From an uncultured Verrucomicrobiae bacterium (lineage in GTDB: Bacteria; Verrucomicrobiota; Verrucomicrobiia; Chthoniobacterales; UBA10450), in contig CAVTUX010000005.1 of NCBI GenBank assembly GCA_963738045.1, positions 548,715 to 612,714 of the forward strand: a stretch of DNA of 64,000 nucleotides, given 5' to 3'. Of this stretch, positions 3,848-62,028 are shown in pieces; within the stretch, counting starts at the first letter, position 1, and each line of letters starts with the position of its first letter. The translations under genes and the position numbers were made by a program. The notes beneath the pieces were generated by a model, which saw nothing but the letters and a program-made list of their open reading frames with translations, had not been told where the DNA came from and made no database searches.

Positions 3848-5614
3848 ATGAGCGGCAATCGCGGCCACCAGGAAAAGCGTTACGAGGGAGTGTCCGCCTC
3901 CCCGGGAATTGCGCACGCACCTTTGCATGTCTTCACGATCGAGACGGACGATGTCGTGCGCTATCAAATCGACCCGGCGCACGTCCCGGACGAAATCGCG
4001 CGCTTCGAGAGCGCGCTCATTCAGACGCGGGCGCAAATCCTCGAGATGCAGCAACAGATCGCGGAAGCGATCGGCGCGAAGGACGCGGGCATTTTCGATG
4101 CGCACCTCCTTGTGGTCGAGGATCAGACGTTGATCGATGAAGTCTTGCGCCGGTTGGAGATCGATCATTGTAACGTCGAGTTCGCTTTCCATGAAGTGGC
4201 GAACCGCTACGTCGAATCGCTGAGCAAGATTGACGATCCCTATTTGCGCGAACGGGCGCTCGACATTCAGGACGTGGCCCGACGCGTGATTCGCAATCTG
4301 CAGGGAAAATCGCCGCGGGCGTTTCTCGCCGCGGATACGCCACACATCCTGGTGGCGCACAATCTCACCCCTTCCGACACCGCCACGATGAACCGCGAAC
4401 AGGTGCGCGGCCTGGCGCTCGATCTCGGCAGCCGCACTTCGCACACCGCGATCATGGCGCGTTCGTTAGGCATTCCCGCTGTCGTCGGATTGCACGACGC
4501 GACGGAGATATTTGAAAGCGGCGCGCCCGCGCTAATCGACGGTTATCACGGCCTGCTCATTATTCATCCAAGCGAAGAAACTCTGCGCGAATACGCCGAG
4601 ATCGAACGTGAGAAAGGCGCAATTGCGGAGCGTTTACGGCAGCTGCGCGAAACCAAATCGACCACCGTAGATGGTCGCCACATCGTGCTCTCGGCCAACA
4701 TCGAGTTGCCCGAGGAAGTGGACGCCGTCCTGGCCAACGGCGCGGAAGGGGTCGGCCTTTACCGCACGGAATTTCTTTACCTTAATCAAGCCGCGCTCCC
4801 AACGGAGGAGGAGCAATTCGCAATTTACCGCACGGTCGCGCAATGGCTCGCACCCAATCCGCTGATTATTCGCACGCTCGACCTCGGCGGCGACAAGCTG
4901 ACGGAGACGATTGAGAGCAGCGACGAACTCAACCCTTTCCTCGGCTGGCGGGCGATCCGGTTTTGCCTCGAAAACCTCGACATCTTCAAGGCGCAGCTGC
5001 GCGCAATTCTTCGAGCCAGCGCGGGAGGGAATGTCAAGATCATGTTCCCCATGATCTCAGGTTTGAACGAAGTGCGTCGCAGTTTGCAAATCGTCGACGA
5101 GTGCAAAAACGAGCTGCGGCGGGAAAACAAGCCGTTCCACGAGGACCTCGAAGTAGGTATCATGATCGAGGTGCCGACAGCCGCGATCATGGCGGATCGA
5201 CTGGCGCGTGAGGTGGATTTCTTCAGCATCGGAACAAACGACCTGATTCAGTATGCGGTCGCGATCGATCGCACCAACGAACGCGTCGCCCACCTTTATG
5301 AGCCGAGCCATCCTTCAGTCGTGAGGCTGCTAAAGATGGTGGCCGATGCCGCGCACGCCAACGACATTTGGGTGGGCGTCTGCGGTGAGATGGCGGGCGA
5401 GGTCTTATTCACGCCGCTCCTGTTGGGACTCGGAATGGACGAATTGAGCGTCGGCGCAACCATCGTTCCGCGGGTCAAGAACGCCGTTCAGCGCCTAACG
5501 ATCACGGAGTGCCGACAGCTGGTCGAACAGGTGCTGGAATTGGATACTCCCGGCGCCGTTCTGGCCCGTTGCACCGCGGTGGCGCAACGAAGCTATCCCG
5601 AGCTGATTTCCTAA
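3848..5614 (+). CDS. ptsI: phosphoenolpyruvate-protein phosphotransferase (Enzyme I)
   Basis: 588 aa. Phospho-His region GSRTSHTAIMARSLGIPAVVG, the PEP-utilizing TIM-barrel part (GLYRTEFLY, FFSIGTNDLIQY) and CGEMAG. Confidence 0.95.
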   Translation: MSGNRGHQEKRYEGVSASPGIAHAPLHVFTIETDDVVRYQIDPAHVPDEIARFESALIQTRAQILEMQQQIAEAIGAKDAGIFDAHLLVVEDQTLIDEVLRRLEIDHCNVEFAFHEVANRYVESLSKIDDPYLRERALDIQDVARRVIRNLQGKSPRAFLAADTPHILVAHNLTPSDTATMNREQVRGLALDLGSRTSHTAIMARSLGIPAVVGLHDATEIFESGAPALIDGYHGLLIIHPSEETLREYAEIEREKGAIAERLRQLRETKSTTVDGRHIVLSANIELPEEVDAVLANGAEGVGLYRTEFLYLNQAALPTEEEQFAIYRTVAQWLAPNPLIIRTLDLGGDKLTETIESSDELNPFLGWRAIRFCLENLDIFKAQLRAILRASAGGNVKIMFPMISGLNEVRRSLQIVDECKNELRRENKPFHEDLEVGIMIEVPTAAIMADRLAREVDFFSIGTNDLIQYAVAIDRTNERVAHLYEPSHPSVVRLLKMVADAAHANDIWVGVCGEMAGEVLFTPLLLGLGMDELSVGATIVPRVKNAVQRLTITECRQLVEQVLELDTPGAVLARCTAVAQRSYPELIS

Positions 5615-5653
5615 TTCCGGCTCTGGGAGGAGGAAGAGCAGGAGAGGACGGTG

Positions 5654-6145
5654 TTACTCCTCCTCTTCGCCCGGTTCGGCGCCCGGCTCGATCTCCGGCT
5701 TGATCCCGTCCTCCTCCATCTTGCGGAGGACGTCACTCATGTCGTCAACCTCGTCCCAGACTTCCTGGCTAACGTAGATCTGGGCTTTTTGCTGCACCGC
5801 CATCGCGATGCAATCACTCGGCCGGCCATCGAGTTCGACAATCTTTTTCTGCTGCAGCTCGTTCTCCGCCCGGATGATCATCCGCGCGTAATAAGTTGCG
5901 TTTTTCAGGTCGTTAATGATCACCCGTTCAACCCGAGCACCGAGCGCCGTCATGAGGTGGCCCATCAAGTCGTGAGTCAGGGGACGCTCCTTGACCGTGC
6001 CGCGCATGAACATGGTGATCGCGCTGCCGACGCTCTGGTCGACATAGATGATGAATACCTTGTCCATGTTGCCGAGGAAGATCGCGCAGCCGCCACTTGT
6101 CGGGAGGACGGCCCGCACCTGCACCTCGATCACCGTCTTGTTCAT
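5654..6145 (-). CDS. bifunctional nuclease (BFN/DUF151) family protein
   Basis: ORF 5654..6199. The conserved core starts at MNKTVIEVQVRAVLPTSGGCAIFLGN (ATG 6145). RPLTHDLM is typical of DUF151. Acidic C-terminal tail. Confidence 0.8.
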   Translation of the reverse strand: MNKTVIEVQVRAVLPTSGGCAIFLGNMDKVFIIYVDQSVGSAITMFMRGTVKERPLTHDLMGHLMTALGARVERVIINDLKNATYYARMIIRAENELQQKKIVELDGRPSDCIAMAVQQKAQIYVSQEVWDEVDDMSDVLRKMEEDGIKPEIEPGAEPGEEEE

Positions 6146-6307: not shown

Positions 6308-8285
6308 ATGACAAAGAACGACTGGGATATTGAGGCCGCGATCGCGACATACAACGTCGACGGTTGGGGCAGCGGTTATTTCTCGGTCAATAGCGCCGGT
6401 AATGTTGTGGCCAAGCCTTTGCAGGAGAACGGCGGGTCGATTGATCTACTCGAAGTCGTCAACGAAGCGCGTGAGCGCGGGCTTGGATTTCCGCTTGTTA
6501 TCCGTTTTCAGGATCTGCTGCGGCATCGCGTGGAGACAGTCAACCACGCCTTTCAAGCGGCGATGCAGGAGTTCGGTTACCGCAACGGATATCGCGGCGT
6601 GTTTCCGATCAAGGTCAACCAATTGCGCGAGGTGATCGAAGAGATCGTCGATGCCGGCGCACCGTTTCACTTCGGCCTCGAAGCGGGCAGCAAACCGGAG
6701 CTGATCGCAGCCCTCGCCATGCACCAGGATCTCGCCAGTCTTATCATCTGCAACGGCTACAAAGATCGTGCCTTCATTCGCACGGCGATGCTCGGCCGCC
6801 GGCTCGGAAAATCAGTCATTATTGTGGTTGAGAAACTCGAAGAACTGGAGCAGACGCTTCGCATCGCAAAGGAAATGGGCGTCGAACCGTTCATTGGCAT
6901 CCGCGTGCGGCTGCACAGCAAGGGCGCCGGGAAATGGACGACGAGCGGCGGCGAGAACGCGAAGTTTGGCCTCAGCACCACGAACCTCGTCGTGGCGAGC
7001 GAAATGCTGAAAGCGCACGGGCTCGCACATTGTCTCAAGCTCGTTCACTTCCACGTCGGCTCTCAGGTACCCGACATTTCCACGATTAAGCGGGCGGTGC
7101 GCGAAGCAGCGCGCTATTACGCGAAACTTTCGAAGATGGGCCACGAGCTCGGTTACCTCGATGTCGGCGGTGGCCTCGGAGTGGATTATGACGGCTCGCG
7201 CACGACGTTCGACAGCTCGACCAATTACTCGCTCCAGGAGTATTGCAATGATGTCGTCTACAACATCATGGAGGTTTGCGACTCGGAAGGCGTCGCCCAT
7301 CCCGCGATTGTGAGCGAAGGCGGTCGCGCGATCGTCGCTCATCATTCCGTCCTCGTGGTCGAGGCGTTTGGATCGATCGAGAAAGACGTGCATACGACGA
7401 AGATCGAGCCTGCGCCTGACGATCCGAAGCCGCTGCGCGACATCATCGAGGTAAAACGCCAACTGAAGCGCGGCAACCGGCTCGAGACTTTGCACGACGC
7501 GCAACAGATCAAGGAAGAAGCCCACCAGATGTTCAACCTCGGTCTTCTTGATCTCGAAGCGAAAGCCAAGGTTGAAGCGCTTTACTGGCAGCTCGCGCGC
7601 CAGATCGTCAACCTGCACCGCGGGCTGAAATATGTGCCGGAGGAAGTGAAGGAACTGGAGACTTCGTTAGCCGATCAATACATCTGCAACTTCTCGATTT
7701 TTCAATCGCTCCTCGACCACTGGGCGCTGGGTCAGCTTTTCCCGATCATGCCGATCCATCGGCTTACAACCCCGCCTGAGCGCCATGGAACGCTGGTTGA
7801 TATCACCTGCGATTCCGACGGAAAGGTCAACAAGTTCACCGACCTGCAGGATGTGAAAGACACTCTGCCGTTGCACAAAATCATTCCCGGCGAGCTCTAT
7901 TACCTCGGAGTGTTCCTGGTCGGCGCGTATCAGGATATCATGGGTGATCTGCACAATCTGTTTGGCCGCGTCACCGAGGTGCACGTCTTCCTCGACGAGG
8001 ATGAAGAATCCGGTTGGTACATCGAAGAGGTGATCGAAGGGAGTACCGATCGGGCAAGTGCTGGCGCTGACGCAATGGGACAAGATCGAGCTGATGCGCC
8101 TGGTGAAGTTGCAGGTCGACGCCGCGATCAAGAGCGACAGGCTCAAGCCTAACGACGCGATGAAAATCCTGGCCGATTACGAGCGCGGCTTGCAGGGTTA
8201 TACCTACCTCTCGCTCGACGGTGCGGCAGCGGTTAACGGCGCCACCCCCGCCCCCTTGCCACTAGCGGCAACTGCGCAGGGCTGA
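6308..8285 (+). pseudogene. speA: biosynthetic arginine decarboxylase, interrupted by a +1 frameshift near 8048-8054
   Basis: ORF 6272..8152 is SpeA-like from MTKNDWDIEAAIATYNVDGWG (ATG 6308). After ...EEVIEGST it turns into nonsense. The conserved C-terminus IGQVLALTQWDK...YERGLQGYTYL continues in ORF 8058..8285, one frame over. One extra nucleotide in AGTACC-G-ATCGGG joins the two frames. Confidence 0.85.
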
Positions 8286-11228: not shown

Positions 11229-11960
11229 ATGTCCACCACGATCGAACTAGTGCCCGAGCTCCTCGAAGCGGGCGTGCATTTTGGCCACCAGACCAAGCGC
11301 TGGAATCCGAAGATGAAGCCGTTCATTTTCGAGAAGCGCAACGCCATCTACATCATCAACCTCGATGAGACGGTGAAGCAGTTGCAGCGCGCCACCGATT
11401 TTCTGCGCGAGGTGGCTCAGCGGGGCGGCAAGATTCTTTTTGTCGGTTGCAAGAAACAGGCCCAGGAAGCGGTCAAGGAAGCCGCCACGGCCTGCGGTCA
11501 ATTTTACGTTAACCAGCGCTGGCTCGGTGGCACCCTGACGAACCTCGCTACGATCCGGAAAAGCATCGGGCGTTTGAAATACATCGAAGAGATCGAGGCG
11601 TCACCCGACTACAAGAAAATGGGCAAACAAGAGCTGGCGGCCCTGAATCGTGAGGCCGCGAAATTGCGCCGCAACCTCGAAGGGATTCTTGAAATGTCTC
11701 AGCTCCCGGACGCCCTGATCATCATCGATACGACACGCGAGCAGAACGCGGTTAACGAAGCGCGCCGTCTCGGAATTCCGACCGTTGCGATCGTCGACAC
11801 AAACGCTGATCCCGAGATTATCGACTACCCGATTCCCGGTAATGATGACGCTATTCGCGCCATCCGCGTGATGCTGCAAAAGCTCGTCGACGCCATCGTC
11901 TCGGCTAGTGGCGAAGCACGGCTGCGCGAGGAAGTCGAGATGGCCGGGATCTCGGCCTAA
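11229..11960 (+). CDS. rpsB: 30S ribosomal protein S2
   Basis: 243 aa. LLEAGVHFGHQTKRWNPKM and the canonical S2 core. The stop TAA lies inside a GCCTAACGA motif copy. Confidence 0.95.
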   Translation: MSTTIELVPELLEAGVHFGHQTKRWNPKMKPFIFEKRNAIYIINLDETVKQLQRATDFLREVAQRGGKILFVGCKKQAQEAVKEAATACGQFYVNQRWLGGTLTNLATIRKSIGRLKYIEEIEASPDYKKMGKQELAALNREAAKLRRNLEGILEMSQLPDALIIIDTTREQNAVNEARRLGIPTVAIVDTNADPEIIDYPIPGNDDAIRAIRVMLQKLVDAIVSASGEARLREEVEMAGISA

Positions 11961-12042
11961 CGAAGGTCTCCGCGTTCACCGGCCGTGGTCGTCAGGCCGT
12001 GGCTGATGGGAGTGTTTGGCTCTCAAACCCAACTTTTTTACC

Positions 12043-12672
12043 ATGGAAATAAATCCTCAGACCGTTAAACAACTACGGGAGAAAACCAACGCCGGCTTCA
12101 TGGACTGCAAGCGCGCCCTCGCCGAAGCGGGTGGTGATCTCGACAAGGCGGAGACGCTTTTGCGCACGAAGGGAATTGCCAGCGCGGGCAAGAAATCATC
12201 GCGGGCTACCAAAGAAGGGATTGTCGCCTCTTACATTCATTTGCAGGGCAAAGTGGGCGTGTTGGTAGAGGTAAACTGCGAGACTGATTTCGTGGCGAAG
12301 AACGAAGGCTTCCGCGCCTTTGTCAAGGACATCACGCTTCACATCGCTGCCGCACAGCCGCTGTATGTCAGCCGCGACGAAGTTCCGCCGGCGACGATTG
12401 CAGCCGAGCGTGCGATTTATGCCGCCCAAGTCAAAGGCAAACCGGAAAACGTGACGGCAAAAATCGTCGAGGGAAAACTCGATAAATTTTATAGCACCGT
12501 TTGTCTGCTCGAGCAGGGCTTCATCAAGAATCCCGACCAGACAATCAAGGAATTAGTCGCGTCAAAGATTGCCGAGATCGGCGAGAATATCGTGATTCGT
12601 CGGTTCACGCGCTACTCGGTCGGCGAGCCGCTGAGTCACGAACCGACGGCCGTACCTGCGGTTCAAGGCTAA
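12043..12672 (+). CDS. tsf: translation elongation factor Ts (short form)
   Basis: ORF 12016..12672. ATG 12043 gives MEINPQTVKQLREKTNAGFMDCKRAL, the UBA-like EF-Ts N-terminus. Downstream of rpsB, as usual. Confidence 0.93.
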   Translation: MEINPQTVKQLREKTNAGFMDCKRALAEAGGDLDKAETLLRTKGIASAGKKSSRATKEGIVASYIHLQGKVGVLVEVNCETDFVAKNEGFRAFVKDITLHIAAAQPLYVSRDEVPPATIAAERAIYAAQVKGKPENVTAKIVEGKLDKFYSTVCLLEQGFIKNPDQTIKELVASKIAEIGENIVIRRFTRYSVGEPLSHEPTAVPAVQG

Positions 12673-14387: not shown

Positions 14388-14399
14388 AAGATCAAAATA

Positions 14400-14830: not shown

Positions 14831-14841
14831 GAGAATCGGCG

Positions 14842-52842: not shown

Positions 52843-52927
52843 CGTTCGTTAGGCCGCCGCCGGCGCGGCGAGAGGGCCGGAACAAAAGGATTGCCGGCCC
52901 CGGGCCTGATTCCTAGCATAACGAGAT

Positions 52928-53182: not shown

Positions 53183-53309
53183 TGCCTAACGAACGGCTTG
53201 ATTACCCATCGACTCGTTCCGCTTGGACTGGGGTCGACGATCGGTTAGGGTGACGGGCGCGGAAGAATCATCCCCGCTAATCCCGAAACCTTAACTGGAG
53301 GATATTTCC

Positions 53310-53819
53310 ATGCTCACGAGCAAAAAAGTGGTCAACGCGATCAACAAACAGATCGGTAACGAATTTGGTGCTTCCCTGCAATATATCGCGATTGCGGCCT
53401 ATTTTTCGGGCGAAGCTTTGCCGCAACTGGCCGAACATTTCTTCCAGCAGGCGGCCGAGGAAAACGATCACGCGATGCGTTTTATCAAATACGTGACGGA
53501 CGCCGGAGGTCAGGTGGTGATTCCTGCGATCGCGGCGCCGCAGCCGACTTTTCAGAACGCGGAGGAGGCCGTCCAACTCTCTCTCGACCAGGAAGTGGAA
53601 GTCACCAAACAGATCAACGCGCTGGTGGAATTGGCCCGCTCCGAGAACGACTACATTACGAACAACTTCCTCCAGTGGTTCCTGACCGAGCAGCTCGAGG
53701 AAGTTTCCTCGATGGACACGCTGCTCAAGATCGTGCAGCGGGGCGCGGCCAATCTTCTGAGCGTGGAGGAACATCTGGCCCGGGTCGGCGTGAAGAGGGC
53801 AGGCATTGGTGAGCACTGA
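53310..53819 (+). CDS. ftn: ferritin (non-heme, Ftn-like)
   Basis: 169 aa. Ferroxidase ligands in the NEFGASLQY, EENDHA and EQLEE contexts. Confidence 0.88.
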   Translation: MLTSKKVVNAINKQIGNEFGASLQYIAIAAYFSGEALPQLAEHFFQQAAEENDHAMRFIKYVTDAGGQVVIPAIAAPQPTFQNAEEAVQLSLDQEVEVTKQINALVELARSENDYITNNFLQWFLTEQLEEVSSMDTLLKIVQRGAANLLSVEEHLARVGVKRAGIGEH

Positions 53820-53863
53820 CCGGCGGCAACACCGAAGCGGATAGTCGGCGCAAAGCGAAGCGA

Positions 53864-55735
53864 CTATTCCACCGTAACGCTTTTCGCCAGATTGCGCGGC
53901 TTATCCACATCGCGGCCGAGGGCGACGGCCAGATGGTAGGCGAAAAGTTGCAGCGGGATCACGGTCAGAACCGGCATCACAATTTCGTCTCCATCGGGCA
54001 CGATAATCGTGTCGTCCACGATTCCCTTCAGCCTCTCGGCGCCGCTCTCCGTCGTGACGGCGATGATCGGACCTTTGCGCGCCCGCACCTGCTCGATGTT
54101 GTTCAGGTTCTTGGAAAAGACGGCATCGTCGGGCGTAATGAAGACGGAGGGAAGCTCCGGTTTGACGAGCGCGATGACGCCGTGCTTCAACTCCGCGCTG
54201 GGATGGCCTTCAGCATAAAGATAGGTGATCTCCTTCATCTTGAGCGCTGCTTCGAGCGCGATCGGGAAGTTAAGTTGCCGGCCGAAGAAGAGCATGCCGG
54301 TGGAGCCCATGTACTTCCCGGCCACGTCCTTGATCTGGTCGCTCGTTTTCAGGAGTTGCTCGATCTTTTCCGGCAAGCCTTCGAGCGCTTCGATCATGCG
54401 CGTGCCTTCCGCAGTCGAGAGCTGCCGCATCCGGCCTAGCAATAAACCGATGAGATTCAGAATCACGACCTGCGAGGTAAAGGACTTGGTCGCGGCCACG
54501 CCGATCTCGGGCCCGGCGTGCATGTAAACTCCGCCGTCGCTTTCGCGCGCGATCGTGCTCGCGACGTTGTTGCAAACGCCGAGGGTGCGAAACCCCTTCC
54601 GCTGGCTCTCACGCAACGCGCCTAATGTATCGGCGGTTTCGCCGCTCTGGCTAATGGCGAAGACGAGCGTGTCGCTCGTCATCGGTGTGTTGCGATGACG
54701 AAATTCGCTCGCGTATTCCACCTCCGTCGGAATGTGGGCCAGTTGTTCGATCAAATATTCGCCGACCATCGCGGCGTGTAACGCCGTGCCGCAGCCGGTC
54801 AAAACCACACGCCCGACATCGCGCAGTTGCGCCGGAGTCATGTTCAGGCCGCCGAGCTTGGCGGTACATTCCTCGAGGCTGAGCCGGCCGCGCATCGCGT
54901 CGCGCACCGAACCGGGCTGCTCAAAGATTTCCTTGAGCATGTAGTGCGGGTAATCCCCTTTTTTGATGTCTTCGGCGGTAAACTCAACCTTGCTGATGGC
55001 GTGGTTGCCCCGCTCGCCGGCCAGTGAACTGATCTCGAATTTGTCGCGCTCGACCGCCACCAGGTCGAAGTCGTTCAGGTAAACCGCGTCGCGGGTGTAG
55101 GCGACAATCGCGCTCACGTCGCTCGCGAGAAAATTTTCATCCTTTCCAACGCCCAGCACGAGCGGGCTGCCCCGACGCGCGCCCACGATGAAATCGGGAA
55201 TATCGGCATGCACGATCGCGATGCCGTAAGTGCCGATGACCTGTTGCAAGGCCGTCCGGAGGGCTTCGACAAGGAGGGCTTTGTGCCGTCGTGGATCGGT
55301 CACGCCGACGGCTGAGTCGTCGTAGAGTTTTCCCACCAGATGGGCCAGCACTTCGGTGTCGGTTTCGGAGGTGAAATGGTGCTCGCCTTCCCGCAAGAGC
55401 GCGTCCTTGATCTGCTGGTAGTTTTCGATCACCCCATTGTGGACGAGGGCGAGCTTGCCGCTCTCGTCAAAATGGGGATGCGCGTTTTGATCGGTCGGTT
55501 TGCCGTGCGTGGCCCAGCGCGTGTGGCTGATGCCATAGGTACCGGCGGCGGGAGCCTCGGCGATCAATTTCGACAAGCCAGCGATGCGGCCGGCACATTT
55601 GCGCGTTTCAACGTGGTCGCCATCGACAATCGCGATTCCGGCAGAATCGTATCCGCGGTACTCGAGCCGGCGCAGACCATCCAGCAAAATGGGCGCGGCC
55701 TCCGCGTTTCCGACGTATCCGACAATGCCACACAT
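53864..55735 (-). CDS. glmS: glutamine--fructose-6-phosphate aminotransferase
   Basis: 623 aa. MCGIVGY nucleophile, two SIS domains and C-terminal PRNLAKSVTVE. Confidence 0.96.
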   Translation of the reverse strand: MCGIVGYVGNAEAAPILLDGLRRLEYRGYDSAGIAIVDGDHVETRKCAGRIAGLSKLIAEAPAAGTYGISHTRWATHGKPTDQNAHPHFDESGKLALVHNGVIENYQQIKDALLREGEHHFTSETDTEVLAHLVGKLYDDSAVGVTDPRRHKALLVEALRTALQQVIGTYGIAIVHADIPDFIVGARRGSPLVLGVGKDENFLASDVSAIVAYTRDAVYLNDFDLVAVERDKFEISSLAGERGNHAISKVEFTAEDIKKGDYPHYMLKEIFEQPGSVRDAMRGRLSLEECTAKLGGLNMTPAQLRDVGRVVLTGCGTALHAAMVGEYLIEQLAHIPTEVEYASEFRHRNTPMTSDTLVFAISQSGETADTLGALRESQRKGFRTLGVCNNVASTIARESDGGVYMHAGPEIGVAATKSFTSQVVILNLIGLLLGRMRQLSTAEGTRMIEALEGLPEKIEQLLKTSDQIKDVAGKYMGSTGMLFFGRQLNFPIALEAALKMKEITYLYAEGHPSAELKHGVIALVKPELPSVFITPDDAVFSKNLNNIEQVRARKGPIIAVTTESGAERLKGIVDDTIIVPDGDEIVMPVLTVIPLQLFAYHLAVALGRDVDKPRNLAKSVTVE

Positions 55736-55986
55736 GGTTTGTTAAATCGTTAAGTGCCTAAGACGTTGAAGCGTTAAGGGGTCGAGTCTGGAGGGAAGGG
55801 TGACACCGACGCCCCCGAGGCGCAAGGAAGGGGCCGTTCGACCGAATTTTAATTGCTGTTCCTTCTCTTGCTTCACGTTTTGGGCTCCGGCCAAAAGAAG
55901 ATTGGTGCGGGACCAAAAACCGGGGACAAAGCGAAATAGATCGGCTTGCCTTGCCCGGGTCGAATCGGTGTAAGTTACCCACTCAC

Positions 55987-57288
55987 ATGCCTCAATCTCC
56001 TGCTCTTCCACCTGGCACCACGCAACGCACGCTCTCCATCATCATGGGCGGCGGCGCCGGCACGCGCTTGTTTCCCCTAACGAAGGATCGCTCAAAGCCG
56101 GCGGTGCCATTAGGCGGAAAATATCGCCTGGTCGACATCCCAATCAGCAACTGCCTCAACTCGGGTCTGCGCTCGATCTACGTGCTGACGCAGTTCAACA
56201 GCATGTCGCTCCATCGCCACATTCAGGCGAGCTACAAGTTTGACAATTTTTCGCGCAGCTTTGTCGATATTCTCGCCGCACAACAAACGCCCGAGGGCGC
56301 CGAGTGGTATCAGGGCACGGCCGACGCCGTCCGGCAAAACCTGCGCTACTTTCTCGAGCAGCCGTACGATTATTACCTCATCCTGAGCGGTGACCAACTC
56401 TACCGGATGGATTTCCGCACTCTCCTGCACGAACACATTCGCTCGGGGGCAGAGATCACCCTTGCCACCACCCCGGTGCAGCGCGCGGCGGCCGGCGATT
56501 TTGGAATCATGTTGAGCGGACCCGATCGGCGGATCACCCGTTTCGAGGAGAAGCCGAAAGACCCCAAGATGCTCAACGAACTCAAGCTTGGGCCTGAATT
56601 ACTGGAATCGATTGAAAGCGATCCCTCGGAAGAGCTTTTTCAGGCGTCGATGGGGATCTACGTTTTCAATCGGCAGGTTCTGGTCGATTGCCTCAACAGC
56701 AACCTGGATGATTTCGGAAAACATGTCATCCCGAAGGCGATCGGTGAACGGCATGTTCACGCCTACATTTTCAAGGGTTACTGGGAAGACATCGGCACCA
56801 TTCGCGCCTTTTACGAGGCGAATCTCGACCTGACCAATCTGGTGCCGAAATACAGTTTCTTCGATGCGACAGCGCCGATCTATACCCACCCGCGTTTCCT
56901 GCCCGGGAGCAAGATCAATGGCGCGACCCTGCGCCAGGCGATCATCTCCGACGGCTGCATCATCTCCGACGCCCACATCGAGCGCAGCGTGATCGGCGTC
57001 CGGAGCATCATCCGGAGTGGCGCAACGATTCGCAACAGCGTCATCATGGGCGGCGACCATTTCGAAGGGGCGGCGCCACCCAGCGCACCCGACGTGCCGC
57101 CGATCGGAATCGGGCGCAATTGCGTGATCGATCGCGCGATCATCGATAAAAACGCGCGCATCGGCGACGGCGTCGTGATTACTCCGGAGGGCAAGGAAAC
57201 GCACCTCGACGCGGCGAATTATTTTATCCGCGACGGGATCGTGGTGGTGCCGAAAGACGCGGTCATTCCCGCGGGCTTTTGGATCTAG
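55987..57288 (+). CDS. glgC: glucose-1-phosphate adenylyltransferase
   Basis: ORF 55951..57288, ATG 55987. GGGAGTRLFPLTKDRSKPAVPLGGKYRLVDIPISNC, with left-handed beta-helix repeats at the C-terminus. Confidence 0.92.
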   Translation: MPQSPALPPGTTQRTLSIIMGGGAGTRLFPLTKDRSKPAVPLGGKYRLVDIPISNCLNSGLRSIYVLTQFNSMSLHRHIQASYKFDNFSRSFVDILAAQQTPEGAEWYQGTADAVRQNLRYFLEQPYDYYLILSGDQLYRMDFRTLLHEHIRSGAEITLATTPVQRAAAGDFGIMLSGPDRRITRFEEKPKDPKMLNELKLGPELLESIESDPSEELFQASMGIYVFNRQVLVDCLNSNLDDFGKHVIPKAIGERHVHAYIFKGYWEDIGTIRAFYEANLDLTNLVPKYSFFDATAPIYTHPRFLPGSKINGATLRQAIISDGCIISDAHIERSVIGVRSIIRSGATIRNSVIMGGDHFEGAAPPSAPDVPPIGIGRNCVIDRAIIDKNARIGDGVVITPEGKETHLDAANYFIRDGIVVVPKDAVIPAGFWI

Positions 57289-57851
57289 ACAAGGCTCCGG
57301 GCACCTCCGCGTTCTGCCCTAACGAGCAAGGCGCCAGACCACCCCGAAACCCGAAAGCGGCGGGCCAATTTTGTCCAGTCAAGCGGTTTATCAAACCAGA
57401 GGTAGAATCCGGGATGTGGCCGGTCGCTCGCTGGTGGCGTCCCGGGCGGTCGAGAGTTTTCGAGACTCGTTGGCGCCTCTCCCGACGCTGCGACTGTGGT
57501 GTGAACGAACGTGTTCCAGCTCTCATCGTTAGGTCCGGCGCATTCCAACTGCAACTTGAAGCGCGAACGCGGTGGATTCGCCAGCTGGATCGCGAACCCA
57601 CTAGTCTCGGCGTGGCGAGCCTCGGGAAAAGCCGCGGCCACGTCCGGTCGCGGAATTGGAAAGATTGCGAGCCGGGTCTGTTCGGGCGTGATGACTCGGA
57701 CGCGCTCGAGCGGTTGTCCGGATTCCGCAAACACCCAGCCCTCGATCCGGAGGACCTCACCGGTGGCGGTCTCGACGCGCTCAACGTGAACCCAGGATCG
57801 ATTCTCCACTTCGCTCAAGCTTGCCAACGGTGGCGATTTGTCCAACTGCAA
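57285..57851 (-). CDS. hypothetical protein sharing a module with the C-terminus of the 58850-60607 membrane protein; possibly a truncated relic
   Basis: 188 aa (TTG start uncertain). GEVLRIEGW...RPDVAAAF...SGFAIQL parallels GLLHLKGW...RPDLSDP...SGFARAV. The 3' end overlaps the glgC stop. Confidence 0.45.
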   Translation of the reverse strand: MQLDKSPPLASLSEVENRSWVHVERVETATGEVLRIEGWVFAESGQPLERVRVITPEQTRLAIFPIPRPDVAAAFPEARHAETSGFAIQLANPPRSRFKLQLECAGPNDESWNTFVHTTVAASGEAPTSLENSRPPGTPPASDRPHPGFYLWFDKPLDWTKLARRFRVSGWSGALLVRAERGGARSLV

Positions 57852-57855
57852 GCGG
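57815..57855. repeat. 41-bp direct repeat, copy A
   Basis: TCAAGCTTGCCAACGGTGGCGATTTGTCCAACTGCAAGCGG. 33/41 identical to copy B at 58787-58827. Confidence 0.8.
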
Positions 57856-57899
57856 GGCGCGACAAAGTGCTTTTGAAAGATGCTCGACGCCTAACGAAT

Positions 57900-58712
57900 C
57901 TACGCTCGCTTGCGCGCGAGGAGCTCGAAGCCGGCAGCCAGGCGCTTTTGCAGGTCCTGCGGCAGCACGAGGAGCGCCCCGAACCCGGGCGGGGTCTCCG
58001 TCTTTCGTCGCCAAAATTCCGCCCATTGCCCAAGTCGGGTGTCAGCGATCTGCGCCTGCCCGGCCGCTGGCAGGCCGCTTTCTTGGAGCGCGTCGAGCAG
58101 ACTGGCGCTGAGAAATCCGAGCATGAAGCCGGGCGAAAAATTGCCGCTCACCTCGCACTTCTCGATCTCGAAATCGCGGAACCATTCGCGGACTCCATAT
58201 TCGGTCGCGTTGAAATAATGGTGCGGCGCTTCGTGCAGCGGCTGGAGAAAGGCGGTGTGCAGTACGAGCGAGCCGCCGGGTTTAAGGACACGGTGGATTT
58301 CACGCGCCGCGAGCGAGGGCTGACGCAGATGTTCGAAGACATTGAAGGCAAAGACGCGATCGAAAACGTTGTCGCGAAAGGGCAGAGCGTGTGCGTCGCC
58401 GACCACGTCGGTATGACGAAAAATCTTGTGCTCGAACTCGACGCAGTTCGGGTGACGGCGCGCGGTCGCGCCAGCCCCGAGGTGAAGCGTCAAGCTCTGC
58501 CCGCGTTTCAGGACCTCTTCGAACTGCGGCCCAAGCGCGTTGCTCTCGTGCTCGACCGGAACAACTTCAACTGGTTCGCCGAGAAACACCGGAATCCCGT
58601 TCACGATACGAAAGTCCTCACCGCAACTTCCGCAGCGAAGGATCTGATCCTTTTCGATCACCTCTTTGCGACACGCTGGGCAAACAAGGATGGCAAGCAG
58701 TTCCCGATTCAT
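57900..58712 (-). CDS. class I SAM-dependent methyltransferase with N-terminal Trm112-like zinc ribbon
   Basis: 270 aa. LVCPACRKEV...LRCGSCGEDFRIVNGIPVF, then a Methyltransf_11-like core (LHLGAGA, DRVFAFNVFEHL, LKPGGSLVL). Confidence 0.8.
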   Translation of the reverse strand: MNRELLAILVCPACRKEVIEKDQILRCGSCGEDFRIVNGIPVFLGEPVEVVPVEHESNALGPQFEEVLKRGQSLTLHLGAGATARRHPNCVEFEHKIFRHTDVVGDAHALPFRDNVFDRVFAFNVFEHLRQPSLAAREIHRVLKPGGSLVLHTAFLQPLHEAPHHYFNATEYGVREWFRDFEIEKCEVSGNFSPGFMLGFLSASLLDALQESGLPAAGQAQIADTRLGQWAEFWRRKTETPPGFGALLVLPQDLQKRLAAGFELLARKRA

Positions 58713-58786
58713 TTCACGCCTCGGGCAGCGAGGCGCGGCCCGGCATTGAGGACGACGAAGTTCTCGTTAAGTGCGTGCCGCATCGT

Positions 58787-58827
58787 TCAAGCTTGCCAAG
58801 TGTAGCAATTTGTCCAACCTCAACCGC
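58787..58827. repeat. 41-bp direct repeat, copy B
   Basis: TCAAGCTTGCCAAGTGTAGCAATTTGTCCAACCTCAACCGC, in the divergent region between the methyltransferase and the membrane-protein gene. It is in frame with the latter. Confidence 0.8.
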
Positions 58828-58849
58828 GCCAGTGCCAATTCCCAGGGAA

Positions 58850-60607
58850 GTGAAACACAGAAGAATTCGGCCGCGCGATTTCGTGCTCGTAGCGTTGGCT
58901 ATCCTGGCGATCCTGCCCGCGCTGCAGATGTGGCACTGGGTTTCCACCAGCTGGGTTCCACTACCTTATTTGGACGAATGGCATACTCCCGGGAGCCAAT
59001 TTGAGTCATTGCAGCGTGGGACCCTCACCATGGCAGAGATGTTCTCGCAGCATAACGAGAGCAGGAAGTTCTTCCCGCGCCTTCTCTACTTCACGCTCGC
59101 TGCGTTCGGCGGCTGGGATGTGCGCAAGGAGATGCGGGTCGTGTTCATCGGCATTTGCGCGGTCTGCCTTTTGCTCCTGCATCTCCTGCGACGGACGCCC
59201 GGCGCGACGCCCCTTTCATCAATGGTCGCTTGGGCGCCGATGATGTTTCTTTGCTTTGCGCCGGGACAGGTGGAGAATTTTTTGTACGGCATCCAACTGG
59301 AGACTTTTTTTCCAGGCTTCGCCGTGCTCGCGGCCGCGGCGGTGAATCTTTCCCGACTCTCCTTCCGCTCGAAAACGGTGGTTAATCTCGCGCTCGCCTT
59401 CGTTGCGACCTACACTTTTGCCAATGGCATGCTCCTCTGGGCGTTGGCCTGGCCGCTTCCCTCGCCCAACGAATCTTCGCCGCTCCGACACCGGATACTC
59501 TGGTCGACAATTTACCTGATCGCTGGCGTGATCTCGGTGGGCTGCTATTTCATCGGCTACCGCCGGCCGTCTCATCATCCGGAGTTCGCATCGATTAGCG
59601 CCAGAGGTGTGGATCTGGCCCATTACCTCATCCTCTGGGTGGGAAGTTATTTCGCGTCCGACGGTGCGGGCCCATTTGTCGTTGGGTTCGTGGCGTTGAT
59701 TTTGTTCACGGGTGGGGGCGCCTTTGCGCTTGAGGCGATCAGACGCCGCGGTGACTGGCGGACATTTTATCCATGGCTGCTCATCGGTGCCTACGCAGGC
59801 GCGACGGGGATGATCACGGCCGTAGGACGGCTTGGCTTCGGCCTGCAACAGGCTCTCGACGAGCGCTACAGGACGTTCAGCCTTTTTTTTTACCTCGCGC
59901 TCGTCGGCCTCTACTTTGCGATCTATTGCTCCCGCGTTTGCTCCGCTAGGTTGGCGACCCGCGTGATCTTCCTAACGAGTGTGTGTGGCGTTGGCTCGCT
60001 GATGGCGATGTGCTGGGGAGCATCGCTCGAAAAAAACCTGGCGGTGCCGGCCTCTTATCACGAATCCCGGACTAATCTGCTACGCTCGCTCGAATGGATG
60101 GAGTCGATCCCCGACAATCCCGACTTTGCTCTGATTCTTCCTCAGGTGGATGTACTGAAAGAGCGTGCGCTTTTCCTAGAAGAGCATCGAATCTTGCGGC
60201 TGCCCTTCGTTCACGATCCGCTAAGTTCGACAGTCCGGCAGGTACCTTCGGCCGCCGGTGATTCTCATGGGAGGATTGAAGTCAGCTGCTTGGATTCGAG
60301 TGGCCTCCTCCATCTCAAAGGCTGGGGTTGGTTGCCCGAAAAAAATCGGCGCGCCGACTGCGTTGTCGTTGGGTGCGAAGACCGCAACCGCGTTTTTAAG
60401 CCGTTCGCCGTTCTTGGGACTGGCGGCGCCCGTCCGGATCTGTCCGATCCGCGTCACAACCCGAATCTGTACCACTCCGGCTTCGCGCGCGCCGTCGATG
60501 CAGCCAATCTTCTCCCCGGCGAGGTCAGCATCAAAGGGTGGGCGATCGATCTTCATGCGCACAAAGCCTGGCCGCTGGCTTCGACCTGCCGTCTCCCGGC
60601 GAGATGA
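58850..60607 (+). CDS. polytopic membrane protein with C-terminal soluble module (possible glycan/envelope biosynthesis role)
   Basis: Distal part of ORF 58391..60607; the first ~320 nt of that ORF are antisense to the methyltransferase. Candidate starts are TTG 58793, GTG 58832 and GTG 58850 (VKHRRIRPRDFVLVALAILAIL). About 11 TM helices. Confidence 0.7.
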   Translation: MKHRRIRPRDFVLVALAILAILPALQMWHWVSTSWVPLPYLDEWHTPGSQFESLQRGTLTMAEMFSQHNESRKFFPRLLYFTLAAFGGWDVRKEMRVVFIGICAVCLLLLHLLRRTPGATPLSSMVAWAPMMFLCFAPGQVENFLYGIQLETFFPGFAVLAAAAVNLSRLSFRSKTVVNLALAFVATYTFANGMLLWALAWPLPSPNESSPLRHRILWSTIYLIAGVISVGCYFIGYRRPSHHPEFASISARGVDLAHYLILWVGSYFASDGAGPFVVGFVALILFTGGGAFALEAIRRRGDWRTFYPWLLIGAYAGATGMITAVGRLGFGLQQALDERYRTFSLFFYLALVGLYFAIYCSRVCSARLATRVIFLTSVCGVGSLMAMCWGASLEKNLAVPASYHESRTNLLRSLEWMESIPDNPDFALILPQVDVLKERALFLEEHRILRLPFVHDPLSSTVRQVPSAAGDSHGRIEVSCLDSSGLLHLKGWGWLPEKNRRADCVVVGCEDRNRVFKPFAVLGTGGARPDLSDPRHNPNLYHSGFARAVDAANLLPGEVSIKGWAIDLHAHKAWPLASTCRLPAR

Positions 60608-60615
60608 TCTGTTCG

Positions 60616-62028
60616 TTAGACGCGCAACCCAACCTCGCGCAGCTGCACGCAGTCGACCAGCCCACCGCCCGCCCGCACATCGCTCAGGACGACCAGATTG
60701 TCGTTAGGCGCGATCAGCTTCTGCGCATGCAGGTGTTTCTCGGCCGCCTCGATGGTTGCATTTGGATCGACGGTAAAATCGAGCTGCACAGAGAACGTGC
60801 CCCAGCAGACGGCGAGCTGGCGACAGACCTCATCACTGGGTGTGAAAGCGAAGATCGGCGCATGGTGTGGCCGGAGGTTCGAGACATAGCGCGCCATCGT
60901 GCCGTGGCGGGTGAAGACGACGATTTTGGCGCGGGGAAGCGAGTTGGCGAGGGACACGGCGGCTGCGACTGTTTTCTGGCGTGAATCTTCGAGGAGCGCG
61001 TCCTTGCCGTAACCGGCACCGCCGCTGCGCTCGATTCGCAGCGCGACCCGGTCGAGTACCTTCACGCATTCGACTGGGTAACGGCCGCTCGTGGTTTCGC
61101 CGGTGAGCATGATGGCGTCGGCTTGTTCGAAGACCGCGTTCGCGACGTCGGTCACTTCCGCGCGCGTGGGCACGGGATTGTGAATCATCGATTCCAGCAT
61201 CTGGGTCGCGACGATCACCGGTTTGCCGATTCGCAAGCAGCGTTTCACGATCCGGCGCTGAATGATCGGCAGCTCTTCCATCGGGCACTCGATCCCGAGA
61301 TCGCCGCGGGCGATCATGAGGATGTCGGTTGCCCAGATCATGTCATCGATCGAGTCGACTGCGCTCTGACTTTCGATCTTGGCCACCACCGCCGCCATGC
61401 TTCTGCCTTTTTGCAAGACCTTGCGCAACTGGTCGAGGTCCTCCTTCTTTCGGGCGAAACTGAGCGCGACAAAATCAACTCGCAGCTCGATCCCGAGCGC
61501 CACGTCGGTCAGATCCTTCTCGGTCAACGCCGGCAGATTTATATCGACGCCCGGCAAGTTGATGTGCCGCCGCGAACCGAGCGTGCCGGCGGTGAGCACA
61601 ACGGTGCGGATGCGGTTGTCCTCCTTCGCGAGGACGCGCACGTGCATGAGGCCGTTGTCGAGCAGGACAACGTTCCCGACAGAAACGTCGTCGATCAGGT
61701 CGTCGTAGTTCACCGTGATTGAGTTCGGCTGGGTGCTCCGCGCGCCACGGACGGTGATTTCCAAAACGTCGCCGATCGCCAGGTCCAGATCGCGCTCGAG
61801 CGGGCCCGTGCGGATGGCTGGTCCTTGCGTGTCGAGCAAAAGTCCGACCTTCCGGTCGAGTTCGCGCGCGATGGCTCGCACCCGCGGCACGATATCGCGC
61901 ACCCAGTCGTGCTTTGCGTGGCTCATGTTGAGCCGGAAGGCGTCCGTGCCAGCCAGGATCATTTTTTCAATGATCTCGGAGGTCTCCGAGGCCGGCCCGA
62001 GCGTGCAGATAATCTTGGTCTTGCGCAT
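60616..62028 (-). CDS. pyk: pyruvate kinase
   Basis: 470 aa. MRKTKIICTLGPAS, MIARGDLGIE and MLTGETTSGRYP. Confidence 0.95.
   Translation of the reverse strand: MRKTKIICTLGPASETSEIIEKMILAGTDAFRLNMSHAKHDWVRDIVPRVRAIARELDRKVGLLLDTQGPAIRTGPLERDLDLAIGDVLEITVRGARSTQPNSITVNYDDLIDDVSVGNVVLLDNGLMHVRVLAKEDNRIRTVVLTAGTLGSRRHINLPGVDINLPALTEKDLTDVALGIELRVDFVALSFARKKEDLDQLRKVLQKGRSMAAVVAKIESQSAVDSIDDMIWATDILMIARGDLGIECPMEELPIIQRRIVKRCLRIGKPVIVATQMLESMIHNPVPTRAEVTDVANAVFEQADAIMLTGETTSGRYPVECVKVLDRVALRIERSGGAGYGKDALLEDSRQKTVAAAVSLANSLPRAKIVVFTRHGTMARYVSNLRPHHAPIFAFTPSDEVCRQLAVCWGTFSVQLDFTVDPNATIEAAEKHLHAQKLIAPNDNLVVLSDVRAGGGLVDCVQLREVGLRV

Follow-up and report, generated by a model that had tools for sequence, protein, structure and literature searches.

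What maintains one and the same nine-base word in gene after gene of a bacterial genome? The question is raised by a stretch of 64,000 nucleotides (the window) from an uncultured Chthoniobacterales bacterium (Verrucomicrobiota), for which the first-pass annotation had listed 26 exact copies of the 9-mer GCCTAACGA. All of them are found where they had been placed, 16 on the plus and 10 on the minus strand (Table 1), and the word is the most frequent 9-mer of the window. The source organism is a soil bacterium.

The word in the window

Markov models of orders 0-3 and dinucleotide-preserving shuffles were used as expectation models for the window count. The Markov models predict 0.35-0.50 copies, an excess of 52-81-fold that bears out the earlier estimate of about 50-fold, while shuffled windows hold 0.32 copies on average and 2 at most. 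The excess disappears with Markov orders of at least 5 trained in the window, where observed/expected is near 1. This result is circular, because the 6-8-mers of the window are almost entirely made up of the word itself, and it is contradicted by a word-free codon-usage expectation and by the relatives described below.

The word is not palindromic. No conserved sequence was found at the positions flanking its copies in the window, so that it is a discrete 9-mer and does not belong to any longer repeat. One-mismatch copies number 43 in the window, and the core CCTAACG occurs 42 times. The 16 copies with one changed end base that had been reported are all present, displaced by at most 1 nt; they have the forms CCCTAACGA (five), GCCTAACGT (five), ACCTAACGA (three), GCCTAACGG (two) and TCCTAACGA (one). 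Copies are clustered along the window rather than evenly spaced (CV 1.2), and the word is scarcer in atypical, poorly codon-adapted accessory segments of low GC. The 8.5 kb stretch in Table 1 carries tsf, after which synteny with relatives stops, followed by hypothetical, methyltransferase and sulfotransferase genes and a TonB-dependent receptor gene. The 11.5 kb stretch carries kdpC, kdpD/E, a c-di-AMP riboswitch, a permease fragment, a sulfotransferase, a cupin, DUF1810 and a TonB receptor.

Table 1. Positions of GCCTAACGA, its end-base variants and word-poor stretches in the window. L001, L002 and L003 are relatives aligned at orthologous sites for individual window copies; ptsI was assigned by Pfam.
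Feature	Position	Strand	Context
GCCTAACGA	4463..4471	-	ptsI, antisense; TCG-TTA-GGC (Ser-Leu-Gly); word in L003, 1-mismatch form in L002, diverged in L001
GCCTAACGA	5493..5501	+	ptsI, sense; xGC-CTA-ACG-Axx (Leu-Thr); kept in L001 and L002
GCCTAACGA	8147..8155	+	speA stop codon (GCC-TAA-CGA); kept in 3/3 relatives
GCCTAACGA	11955..11963	+	rpsB stop codon (GCC-TAA); kept in L003
Word-free stretch, 8.5 kb	11964..20432		lower GC (0.55-0.56); no exact copy, no core copy
GCCTAACGA	20433..20441	+	ribE (riboflavin synthase), sense, Leu-Thr
GCCTAACGA	20724..20732	+	ribE, sense, Leu-Thr
GCCTAACGA	20812..20820	+	ribE, sense, xxG-CCT-AAC-GAx (Pro-Asn-Asp/Glu)
GCCTAACGA	21438..21446	-	aroD (type I dehydroquinase), antisense, Ser-Leu-Gly
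GCCTAACGA	22625..22633	+	stop codon of Lon N-terminal-domain gene
GCCTAACGA	23779..23787	-	5' end of HD-domain (dGTPase-like) gene; ATG-CCT-AAC-GAA sharing the start-codon G if ORF start is 23789, otherwise 5' leader
GCCTAACGA	24330..24338	-	small ORF 23984-24346 (-), sense, Pro-Asn-Asp
GCCTAACGA	24605..24613	+	2-oxoacid dehydrogenase E2 gene, antisense, xTC-GTT-AGG-Cxx (Val-Arg)
GCCTAACGA	24809..24817	+	2-oxoacid dehydrogenase E2 gene, antisense, Val-Arg
GCCTAACGA	29801..29809	-	fahA (fumarylacetoacetase), sense, Leu-Thr
GCCTAACGA	30343..30351	-	fahA, sense, Pro-Asn-Asp/Glu
GCCTAACGA	31166..31174	+	ORF 31067-32011 (-), antisense, Ser-Leu-Gly
GCCTAACGA	34361..34369	+	kdpA, sense, Leu-Thr
GCCTAACGA	35729..35737	+	kdpB, sense, Pro-Asn-Asp/Glu
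GCCTAACGA	35953..35961	-	kdpB, antisense, Val-Arg
GCCTAACGA	37281..37289	+	kdpB/kdpC intergenic
Word-poor stretch, 11.5 kb	37290..48795		no exact copy; 3 end-base variants (41540, 43207, 48758)
GCCTAACGA	48796..48804	+	intergenic/uncertain region adjoining TonB-dependent receptor gene; variant ACCTAACGA 38 nt upstream (48758)
GCCTAACGA	51988..51996	-	serA, antisense, Ser-Leu-Gly
GCCTAACGA	52846..52854	-	4 nt past serA stop codon
GCCTAACGA	53184..53192	+	2 nt past stop of transglycosylase-associated protein gene (52928-53182)
GCCTAACGA	57889..57897	+	3 nt beyond stop end of minus-strand methyltransferase gene (57900-58712)
GCCTAACGA	60701..60709	-	pyk (pyruvate kinase), sense, Pro-Asn-Asp/Glu
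16 end-base variants	within 21370..59978	.	core CCTAACG intact, one end base changed; 9-mer starts 21370, 21604, 25268, 26165, 32403, 33714, 34715, 36441, 41540, 43207, 48758, 51682, 56075, 57317, 57526, 59970

Maintenance at the level of double-stranded DNA

The frames proposed for the window copies hold for Ser-Leu-Gly (ptsI, aroD, serA, ORF 31067-32011), for Leu-Thr (ptsI, ribE twice, fahA, kdpA) and for Val-Arg (E2 twice, kdpB). Pro-Asn-Asp/Glu had been assigned correctly in ribE, fahA, kdpB, pyk and a small ORF, but not in speA, where the copy forms the stop codon. Stop codons are therefore supplied by three copies (speA 8147, rpsB 11955, Lon-N 22625) and not only by the latter two, as had been counted. 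Another three are found 2-4 nt past a stop (52846, 53184, 57889).

Measured against word-free codon usage, observed/expected reaches 279-557 in all four stop-free frames. About 85% of the copies overlap a gene, as the coding fraction would predict, and 14.8% are intergenic, compared to 13.6% non-coding DNA. In the window's lineage, both orientations relative to genes are used (57:43). TTA, CTA and AGG are the rarest codons and yet are used by the word: 17-19% of all TTA, CTA, AGG and CCT codons fall within it, with 19% for TTA, CTA and AGG. The proteome is distorted, with 256 SLG tripeptides against 110 expected (2.3-fold) and 619 PN dipeptides against 392 expected. In loci partly selected on the word, 74 of 749 genes (about 10%) end inside it with TAA or TAG. 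Intergenic DNA and the four open frames are equally enriched, rare codons are forced on genes and protein sequences are altered. It is therefore as double-stranded DNA, and not through protein, that the word is selected or driven, which agrees with the initial interpretation.

Spread and conservation among relatives

The word is not restricted to the window's genome. More than 50 related species-level Chthoniobacterales genomes have it as their top 9-mer, at about 0.1-2.4 copies per kb, so that its presence is lineage-wide. The 840 kb collected from these genomes, a set partly ascertained on the word, contain 798 copies where 4.7 would be expected. In relatives collected without reference to the word it again ranks first among the 9-mers, with 8, 8 and 9 copies in 17-22 kb; L003 has 9 copies where 0.08 are expected. 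It is carried by metagenome-assembled genomes (MAGs) from many studies, independent of one another, that used Illumina and Nanopore sequencing. We conclude that Chthoniobacterales share GCCTAACGA as a genomic word across the lineage, over-represented 60-170-fold. Literature searches found no published description of it, in line with the earlier statement that no word of this sequence was known.

Orthologous positions hold versions with one or two mismatches and no indels, which indicates that the word arises in place by point substitution. Between orthologues of 70-75%, 75-80% and 80-85% nucleotide identity, 33%, 62% and 67% of the copies are conserved, compared to 8%, 12% and 18% of all 9-mers. 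Overall, copies are kept 4-5 times more often than ordinary 9-mers, and this applies equally to each frame and to intergenic DNA. In the 840 kb set the inner CTAAC is strict and has no enriched variants. The outer bases are softer: particular variants are tolerated at positions 1, 2, 8 and 9, and the end-base variants are themselves enriched 3-29-fold.

The CCTAACG core is also enriched in Gemmatimonadaceae, which belong to another phylum. In several lineages of this family nearly all cores are antisense and share one frame, NCG-TTA-GGN. At L144 and L146, two Gemmatimonadaceae loci chosen independently of the word, and L160 (GC 0.72, taxon putative), 23 of the 27 in-gene cores encode [S/P/T/A]-Leu(TTA)-Gly on the sense strand. 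For L144 and L146, about 70% of the TTA codons stand in the NCG-TTA-GGN context and TTA is used in 50-68% of [SPTA]LG tripeptides, while the Leu-Thr frame, one synonymous step off, is not converted. Between these two genomes 7 of 8 core sites are conserved, compared to 13.6% of all 7-mers. Such one-frame antisense cores point to a transcription- or translation-linked component, which is not predicted by a pure uptake model. Gemmatimonadaceae MAGs with the exact 9-mer are mixed in frame.

Candidate explanations and known systems

Our best guess, held tentatively and at somewhat less than even chances, is that GCCTAACGA is an uptake or recombination word of the type of the DNA uptake sequence (DUS) and the uptake signal sequence (USS). 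In its density, independent orientation, distortion of the proteome and persistence at orthologous sites it behaves as these words do. Copies are created in place through point substitutions, and the force that holds them reads double-stranded DNA, blind to gene, frame, strand and coding status. The likeliest candidate for this force is a molecular drive: a putative DNA-binding component, belonging either to the uptake/transformation machinery or to the subsequent recombination step, would favour word-bearing fragments, and uptake and recombination would bring word-gaining alleles into the population more often than word-losing ones. The word would then build up wherever protein function tolerates it, and mutated copies would be repaired at the population level. 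The likeness to DUS and USS proposed in the first-pass annotation thus stands for density and orientation independence. It does not extend to the 'occasional inverted pairs', since only 4 of 295 adjacent inverted pairs lie within 40 nt, nor to the frame specificity in Gemmatimonadaceae or to one phage-like contig (terminase, portal, holin) which, with 17 copies in 18 kb, has host density. The clustered spacing, the 7-base core shared with another phylum and copies that follow coding DNA, with no terminator association, also speak against uptake.

The main rival, which we regard as rather doubtful although a serious contender, is a HIP1-like word, the site of an intracellular DNA-recognising system. 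The determinant could be an orphan methyltransferase paired with short-patch repair, or else an abundant protein that organises the nucleoid or chromosome, and selection or biased repair would act on any DNA replicating in the cell, not on uptake. The magnitudes and behaviour of HIP1 match those of GCCTAACGA, the distribution in proportion to coding DNA is accommodated, the phage-like contig fits a force inside the cell, and occurrence in two phyla is easier if a methyltransferase or repair gene is horizontally mobile. On the other hand, the word is asymmetric, and short-patch repair fixes one base, whereas all nine positions are constrained and the inner five very strictly. The window contains neither a DNA methyltransferase gene nor a Vsr gene, and a CTAAC/GTTAG methylation motif is absent from the Nanomotif supplementary tables (727,000 characters), which argues weakly against methylation. 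As recent preprints tie HIP1 to transformation, this rival may not be truly distinct from the uptake reading. An mRNA-, translation- or transcribed-strand-linked signal with NCG-UUA-GGN, a rare Leu codon in fixed context, as primary unit is improbable. It would account for the sense-strand cores, TTA context share, unconverted Leu-Thr frame and conserved sites of the Gemmatimonadaceae loci, with the all-frame spread in Chthoniobacterales being secondary. However, an RNA- or frame-level signal fails in Chthoniobacterales, because both gene orientations, all four open frames and intergenic DNA are used with similar enrichment and conservation, and the mixed frames of the exact 9-mer in Gemmatimonadaceae MAGs also disagree with it.

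A polar chromosome word of the Chi/KOPS/AIMS type, recognised by RecBCD/AddAB or FtsK and aligned with the direction of replication, would likewise be short, over-represented and non-palindromic, and the 16 to 10 ratio in the window might suggest it. In contiguous 8-kb blocks, however, the orientations of neighbouring copies are mutually independent, like coin tosses, which leaves no polarity of this kind. Per-locus strand heterogeneity is that of chance (chi-square 69.8 on 71 df, p = 0.52; the value would be about three times as high with a 75:25 skew), confirming for local loci that a replication-type strand skew is missing, and orientation is not correlated with GC skew. Enrichment is also far above the roughly 5-10-fold of Chi or KOPS. 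The polar reading is effectively refuted at local scale by the mixed orientation and we give it hardly any credence. The same low credence applies to an ordinary by-product, be it a repeated protein motif, a codon or composition effect, a mobile-element remnant or an assembly artefact. Its one support, the count predicted by Markov orders of at least 5, is circular. It is ruled out by frame diversity including stop codons and intergenic DNA, by the rare codons, by the codon-usage expectation and by the lack of conserved flanks and indels, which also excludes a repeated-protein or mobile-element origin; occurrence in independently sequenced MAGs speaks against an artefact.

Chi, KOPS and other polar architecture-imparting words are, like GCCTAACGA, over-represented asymmetric oligomers of 5-9 bases, but their orientation follows replication closely and their over-representation is only modest. 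HIP1 (GCGATCGC) of cyanobacteria is 15-300-fold over-represented, lies inside ORFs and is conserved between orthologues; its function was long unknown and is now connected in preprints with transformation and horizontal transfer. Both words share the range of over-representation, the gene-indifferent location in ORFs, conservation beyond expectation and a phylum-scale distribution with variants. HIP1 is palindromic and contains sites of known methyltransferases, whereas no methylation or methyltransferase is known for the asymmetric GCCTAACGA (Nanomotif supplementary tables).

To our knowledge, DNA uptake sequences have so far been described in two bacterial families only. They are usually scarce in mobile elements. 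The DUS of Neisseriaceae (GCCGTCTGAA core) is bound by the minor pilin ComP; GCCTAACGA differs from it in word and phylum. About half of DUS and USS are located in terminators, often as inverted pairs; no GCCTAACGA copy is so placed, and the phage-like contig is dense in it. The USS of Pasteurellaceae (AAGTGCGGT core) is flanked by AT-rich segments and associated with terminators, while the flanks of GCCTAACGA are almost without information and its enrichment is nearly equal in all open frames. Hallmarks described in PMC2817400 and PMC3630211 include abundance, both orientations, a cost-shaped frame bias and dialects, and PMC2817400 describes a proteome distorted by the USS through frame-specific tripeptides. 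GCCTAACGA distorts its proteome likewise, and it shares with the USS a 9-mer core, copies mostly in coding DNA, perfect copies outnumbering one-mismatch ones and evolution by point mutation. With the DUS it shares that the word is short and non-palindromic, occurs about once per kb in both orientations and also inside genes, is common to a whole family or order, and has softer outer positions resembling 'dialects'.

Abundance of the word in the window

In the 64-kb window, 26 copies of the 9-mer GCCTAACGA are present, 16 on the plus and 10 on the minus strand, each exactly where the first-pass annotation had placed it. It is the top-ranked 9-mer of the window. Dinucleotide-preserving shuffles contained 0.32 copies on average and never more than 2, and Markov models of orders 0-3 predict 0.35-0.50 copies, which corresponds to a 52-81-fold excess and agrees with the earlier estimate of about 50-fold. 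The excess is thus seen with orders 0-3, while models of order 5 and above apparently "explain" the count; within a single window this higher-order test is circular because the 6-8-mers consist almost wholly of the word. The core CCTAACG is found 42 times and there are 43 copies of the 9-mer with one mismatch. The 16 copies with an altered end base that had been listed before are present and represent the additional core copies. Nothing is conserved in the flanks outside the nine bases, and GCCTAACGA is therefore a discrete word and not a fragment of a longer repeat. The commonest 8-mers of the window, CGATCGCG and GATCGCGC (43 and 41 copies), resemble HIP1, the cyanobacterial iterated palindrome. 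They were rejected as a second hyper-abundant word, being only about 2-fold above Markov expectation, and their abundance is probably compositional.

The gene content of the window represents ordinary housekeeping functions: HPr kinase, HPr, PtsI, SpeA, ribosomal proteins S1 and S2, EF-Ts, riboflavin synthase, AroD, a Lon-N domain protein, a 2-oxoacid dehydrogenase complex (E1, E2), FahA, KdpABC, KdpDE, SerA, ferritin, GlmS, GlgC and pyruvate kinase. PtsI shows 100% identity to a JGI metagenome protein and 82-91% identity to MAG proteins labelled at NCBI as Chthoniobacterales, Spartobacteria or Verrucomicrobiota. No competence, pilus or DNA-methyltransferase genes were found within the 64 kb. 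Word spacing is clustered (CV 1.2), and word density correlates with GC content (rho 0.55) and with codon adaptation. Two low-GC stretches without the word (see table) code for hypothetical proteins, two sulfotransferases, a methyltransferase and two TonB-dependent receptors, and look like more recently acquired DNA. Synteny with relatives stops after tsf. An rRNA operon behind the stretch at 12-20 kb was excluded, with zero rRNA or tRNA matches and accessory-type genes found instead.

Two other features of the window are of separate interest. The c-di-AMP riboswitch is located downstream of kdpDE and upstream of an ORF with a weak, partial match to amino-acid permeases, possibly a degraded gene. 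At the 5′ end of the HD-domain ORF, if the first ATG is the start codon, its G is shared with the word (ATG-CCT-AAC-GAA); the codon model favours a later start, and the true start is uncertain.

Features with coordinates, in the window and in four fetched loci with tandem repeats
Feature	Location	Strand	Characteristics
Low-GC stretch	11964-20432		no exact copy, no core; GC 0.55-0.57; weak coding signal
Low-GC, accessory-looking stretch	37-49 kb, especially 44-48 kb		no exact copy
Segment of the latter	44000-48700		no exact copy, no core; GC 0.55-0.57; weak coding signal
Word copy at 5′ end of HD-domain (dGTPase-like) ORF	23779-23789	-	
c-di-AMP riboswitch (ydaO/yuaA type)	41324-41483	+	55 bits
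9-mer in short tandem repeat, locus L119	535-741		
9-mer in short tandem repeat, locus L052	2319-2426		
9-mer in short tandem repeat, locus L079	2498-2767		
9-mer in short tandem repeat, locus L092	7585-7665		

Occurrence in Chthoniobacterales and effects on genes

Chthoniobacterales, an order that includes 'Candidatus Udaeobacter', are among the most abundant uncultured soil bacteria. The word is common in close relatives, where the first-pass annotation had proposed to look for it. The orthologous loci of three relatives, fetched via PtsI homology and independently of the word, contain 8, 8 and 9 copies of GCCTAACGA in 17-22 kb (for the third, 9 versus 0.08 expected), and it is again the top 9-mer. 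When 185,579 species genomes were scanned for two copies 60-90 nt apart, at least 117 blocks matched. Among the matches listed, about 90 blocks represent more than 50 different MAGs labelled Chthoniobacterales, 'uncultured Verrucomicrobiae' or Spartobacteria, and the word-bearing MAGs originate from numerous independent projects, both Illumina- and Nanopore-based. With the ascertaining pair removed, word density across relatives is about 0.1-2.4 per kb, and in every case GCCTAACGA predominates over other forms. A set of 840 kb from more than 50 Chthoniobacterales genomes contains 798 copies versus 4.7 expected, a ratio inflated by ascertainment; the unbiased density, from the window and the three PtsI-derived loci, is 0.41 copies per kb. 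Four loci selected on the word and thus biased to dense regions, L010, L021, L070 (SMAG_U5101) and L080 (MFD05442.bin.2.102), carry 16-21 copies per 8 kb or about one per 400-500 bp. Such a density exceeds that of the uptake word DUS in Neisseria.

Matches of the pair pattern in Eremiobacterota, Kribbella, Xenococcaceae, Blautia and several viruses were rejected as tandem repeats (periods of about 17-90 nt) or chance. The four tandem repeats in the table are from Eremiobacterota, Kribbella and one Gemmatimonadaceae block, have periods of 33, 29 and 18 nt, and are unrelated to the dispersed word.

Within contiguous blocks, plus and minus counts behave as independent coin tosses (chi-square 69.8, 71 df, p = 0.52), and no correlation of word orientation with GC skew was found. 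At the local scale, there is accordingly no strong replication-strand skew, as anticipated, and a polar word of the Chi/KOPS type is excluded by the independent orientation of neighbouring copies. The "occasional inverted pairs" of the first-pass annotation had to be abandoned. A distance of 40 nt or less was seen in only 4 of the 145 convergent pairs of neighbours and in none of the 150 divergent ones. With inverted pairs at close range practically missing, there is no terminator-hairpin arrangement.

Assignment to genes in the 840-kb set is based on our own codon-model gene calls. While 613 of the 798 copies are entirely within genes and 67 extend across a gene end, the remaining 118 (14.8%) fall between genes, against a 13.6% share of non-coding DNA. 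All four stop-free frames are populated (PN[D/E] 206, SLG 157, LT 141, VR 109), at 279-557 times the frequency that word-free codon usage predicts, which excludes a compositional or codon artefact. The TAA and TAG frames of the word serve as real stop codons. GCC-TAA-CGA forms 45 and CGT-TAG-GC 29 of 749 gene ends, together about 10% of the genes in these loci, a usage close to what the general enrichment predicts once a stop triplet is present. Of the TTA, CTA, AGG and CCT codons, 17-19% fall within the word, as do 19% of the TAA stops. The protein sequences are altered as well: there are 256 SLG tripeptides (110 expected), 157 of them encoded by TCGTTAGGC, and 619 PN dipeptides (392 expected). 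Relative to genes, the sense to antisense ratio is 57:43. The enrichment in all open frames and in intergenic DNA, together with the altered proteins, bears out the earlier view that selection is at the DNA rather than the protein level.

At orthologous sites, relatives carry versions with one or two mismatches but never indels. At 70-75%, 75-80% and 80-85% nucleotide identity, orthologues share the word in 33%, 62% and 67% of cases, compared to 8%, 12% and 18% for all 9-mers, and conservation is similar across every frame and intergenic DNA. Among one-mismatch variants, none is enriched in the inner CTAAC, and those tolerated affect position 1 (C, A), 2 (A), 8 (A) and 9 (G, T). In the 840-kb set, the 798 perfect copies outnumber all one-mismatch copies taken together (457). 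With uninformative flanks and orthologues that differ by substitutions alone, an origin from a longer repeat or mobile element is excluded, and so is derivation from one repeated protein, which had been named as a way to refute the word. We consider it established that the word is genuine, extends through the lineage and arises in place, and that it is maintained by something that recognizes nine base pairs of duplex DNA, whatever the coding context.

The shared core in Gemmatimonadaceae

Among the matches listed, eight blocks are labelled Gemmatimonadota, one being a tandem repeat and seven having dispersed extra copies at a GC content of 0.63-0.68. Mis-binning is unlikely: the closest named relatives of a kinase from locus L051 are Gemmatimonadaceae, the GC content is as given, and several independent MAG studies contributed. 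It is also opposed by two loci which were fetched via homologues of this kinase and independently of the word. In these, CCTAACG occurs 10 and 19 times in 21.5 kb (1.1-1.2 expected) and is the top 7-mer, with variable flanks (RCCTAACG). The form in Gemmatimonadaceae is thus RCCTAACG or the identical 9-mer. Enrichment of CCTAACG was negative in the fetched loci L159 and L161, in a Planctomycetaceae block, in Actinomycetota blocks and in others; the core thus has a patchy distribution over two phyla. ACTACTA, a further candidate in Gemmatimonadaceae, just encodes Asp-Tyr-Tyr.

In three loci of low density (L144 and L146 from Gemmatimonadaceae, and L160, for which the taxon is not confirmed), the in-gene cores are antisense and in a single frame in 23 of 27 cases, so that the sense strand reads NCG-TTA-GGN, which is [S/P/T/A]-Leu-Gly. 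In L144 and L146, about 70% of the TTA codons are in this context and 50-68% of the [SPTA]LG tripeptides use TTA, although TTA represents only 2-3% of the Leu codons. The Leu-Thr frame has not been converted there, though it is one synonymous step away. Between the two genomes, 7 of 8 core sites are conserved (13.6% for all 7-mers). All frames are populated in Chthoniobacterales and in those Gemmatimonadaceae MAGs that have the exact 9-mer. The single-frame and the all-frame regimes could not be reconciled; transcription or translation may contribute, or NCG-TTA-GGN may be a weak-drive or ancestral state. The frame-specific form is in itself a codon-context phenomenon in need of explanation.

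Uptake word or intracellular recognition site

Two known phenomena look like the word, the uptake sequences DUS and USS (of Neisseriaceae and Pasteurellaceae) and HIP1. We favour, tentatively and short of an even chance, a molecular drive of the DUS/USS type, because the word is asymmetric, its nine positions are constrained by degrees, it has reshaped proteins and it is missing from atypical stretches of DNA. What speaks against this reading is the missing association with terminators, the cross-phylum core and a word-dense phage. This phage-like contig (IMGVR_UViG_3300037261_000237) encodes terminase, portal, holin and repressor and carries 17 copies in 18 kb (0.09 expected), in both orientations and inside structural genes; it is a single example ascertained by the word. 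Its sole detectable relative (38% terminase identity) has zero copies. Pattern scans of IMG/VR and a scan of terminase homologues for word-bearing phages returned this one convincing contig only, and the other viral matches are chance matches or repeats. As to recently acquired and mobile DNA, the two low-GC accessory stretches of the window lack the word, but it is dense on the one phage-like contig. The density on the contig mildly favours a force that acts inside the cell, or a long-resident prophage.

A force inside the cell would be provided by an intracellular recognition system comparable to HIP1, which we consider possible but somewhat less probable than the uptake-type drive. The distribution in proportion to coding DNA, the word-dense phage and the cross-phylum spread all fit such a system. 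However, methylation data lend it nothing, as no CTAAC or GTTAG motif is present in the Nanomotif supplements, and the mechanism of HIP1 is itself unresolved. The presence of ComEC and DprA would not discriminate, both being near-universal.

Full-text searches of the literature turned up neither this word, in agreement with the first-pass annotation, nor any uptake-type word from these phyla. Searches for uptake sequences in bacteria other than the two known families, and for competence in Udaeobacter, Chthoniobacter and Gemmatimonas, likewise returned nothing relevant. To our knowledge, sequence-specific DNA uptake has for about 40 years been known from two proteobacterial families only. The word leaves the genomic footprint of uptake sequences, strong enough to alter codon usage, the choice of stop codons and the peptide content. 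It is conceivable, though on present analysis rather doubtful, that it represents a third uptake or self-recognition system and the first outside Proteobacteria, with a core shared with Gemmatimonadaceae and NCG-TTA-GGN as a perhaps ancestral or weak-drive state. If so, the shared core would imply a horizontally transferred recognizer or a common cross-phylum 'DNA code' in soil, and an uptake function would considerably widen the phenomenon, to a dominant uncultured soil lineage. If the word does not serve uptake, it is a second puzzle of the HIP1 kind with an asymmetric site. The word could be used as a marker for contig binning and phage-host linkage in soil metagenomes and as a ligand for finding the recognizing protein, and its addition to donor DNA may open a route to genetic manipulation of these organisms.

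The proposed likeness to DUS and USS holds for abundance, for the use of both orientations and for frame independence, but not for inverted pairs. As in the two known systems, a short specific word occurs far above chance (26 versus 0.32 copies in the window, 9 versus 0.08 in the third PtsI-derived locus, 798 versus 4.7 in the 840-kb set), in both orientations without replication polarity (here at the local scale), is common to a family or order with dialects (here more than 50 Chthoniobacterales MAG species), is tolerated in gene frames and reshapes peptide content. About half of the DUS and USS are located in terminators (2025 survey), often as inverted-repeat pairs, whereas GCCTAACGA lacks this arrangement; the same survey restricts uptake sequences to Neisseriaceae and Pasteurellaceae. 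Chi and KOPS are strongly co-oriented with replication, in contrast to the independent neighbouring copies found here. HIP1 is, like the word, conserved at orthologous sites above background (33-67% versus 8-18% for the word), but is a palindromic octamer, while GCCTAACGA is not its own reverse complement. We classify GCCTAACGA as a member of the known class of hyper-abundant DNA-level genomic words, among which it is unusual for its asymmetric site, its cross-phylum core and its frame-specific form.
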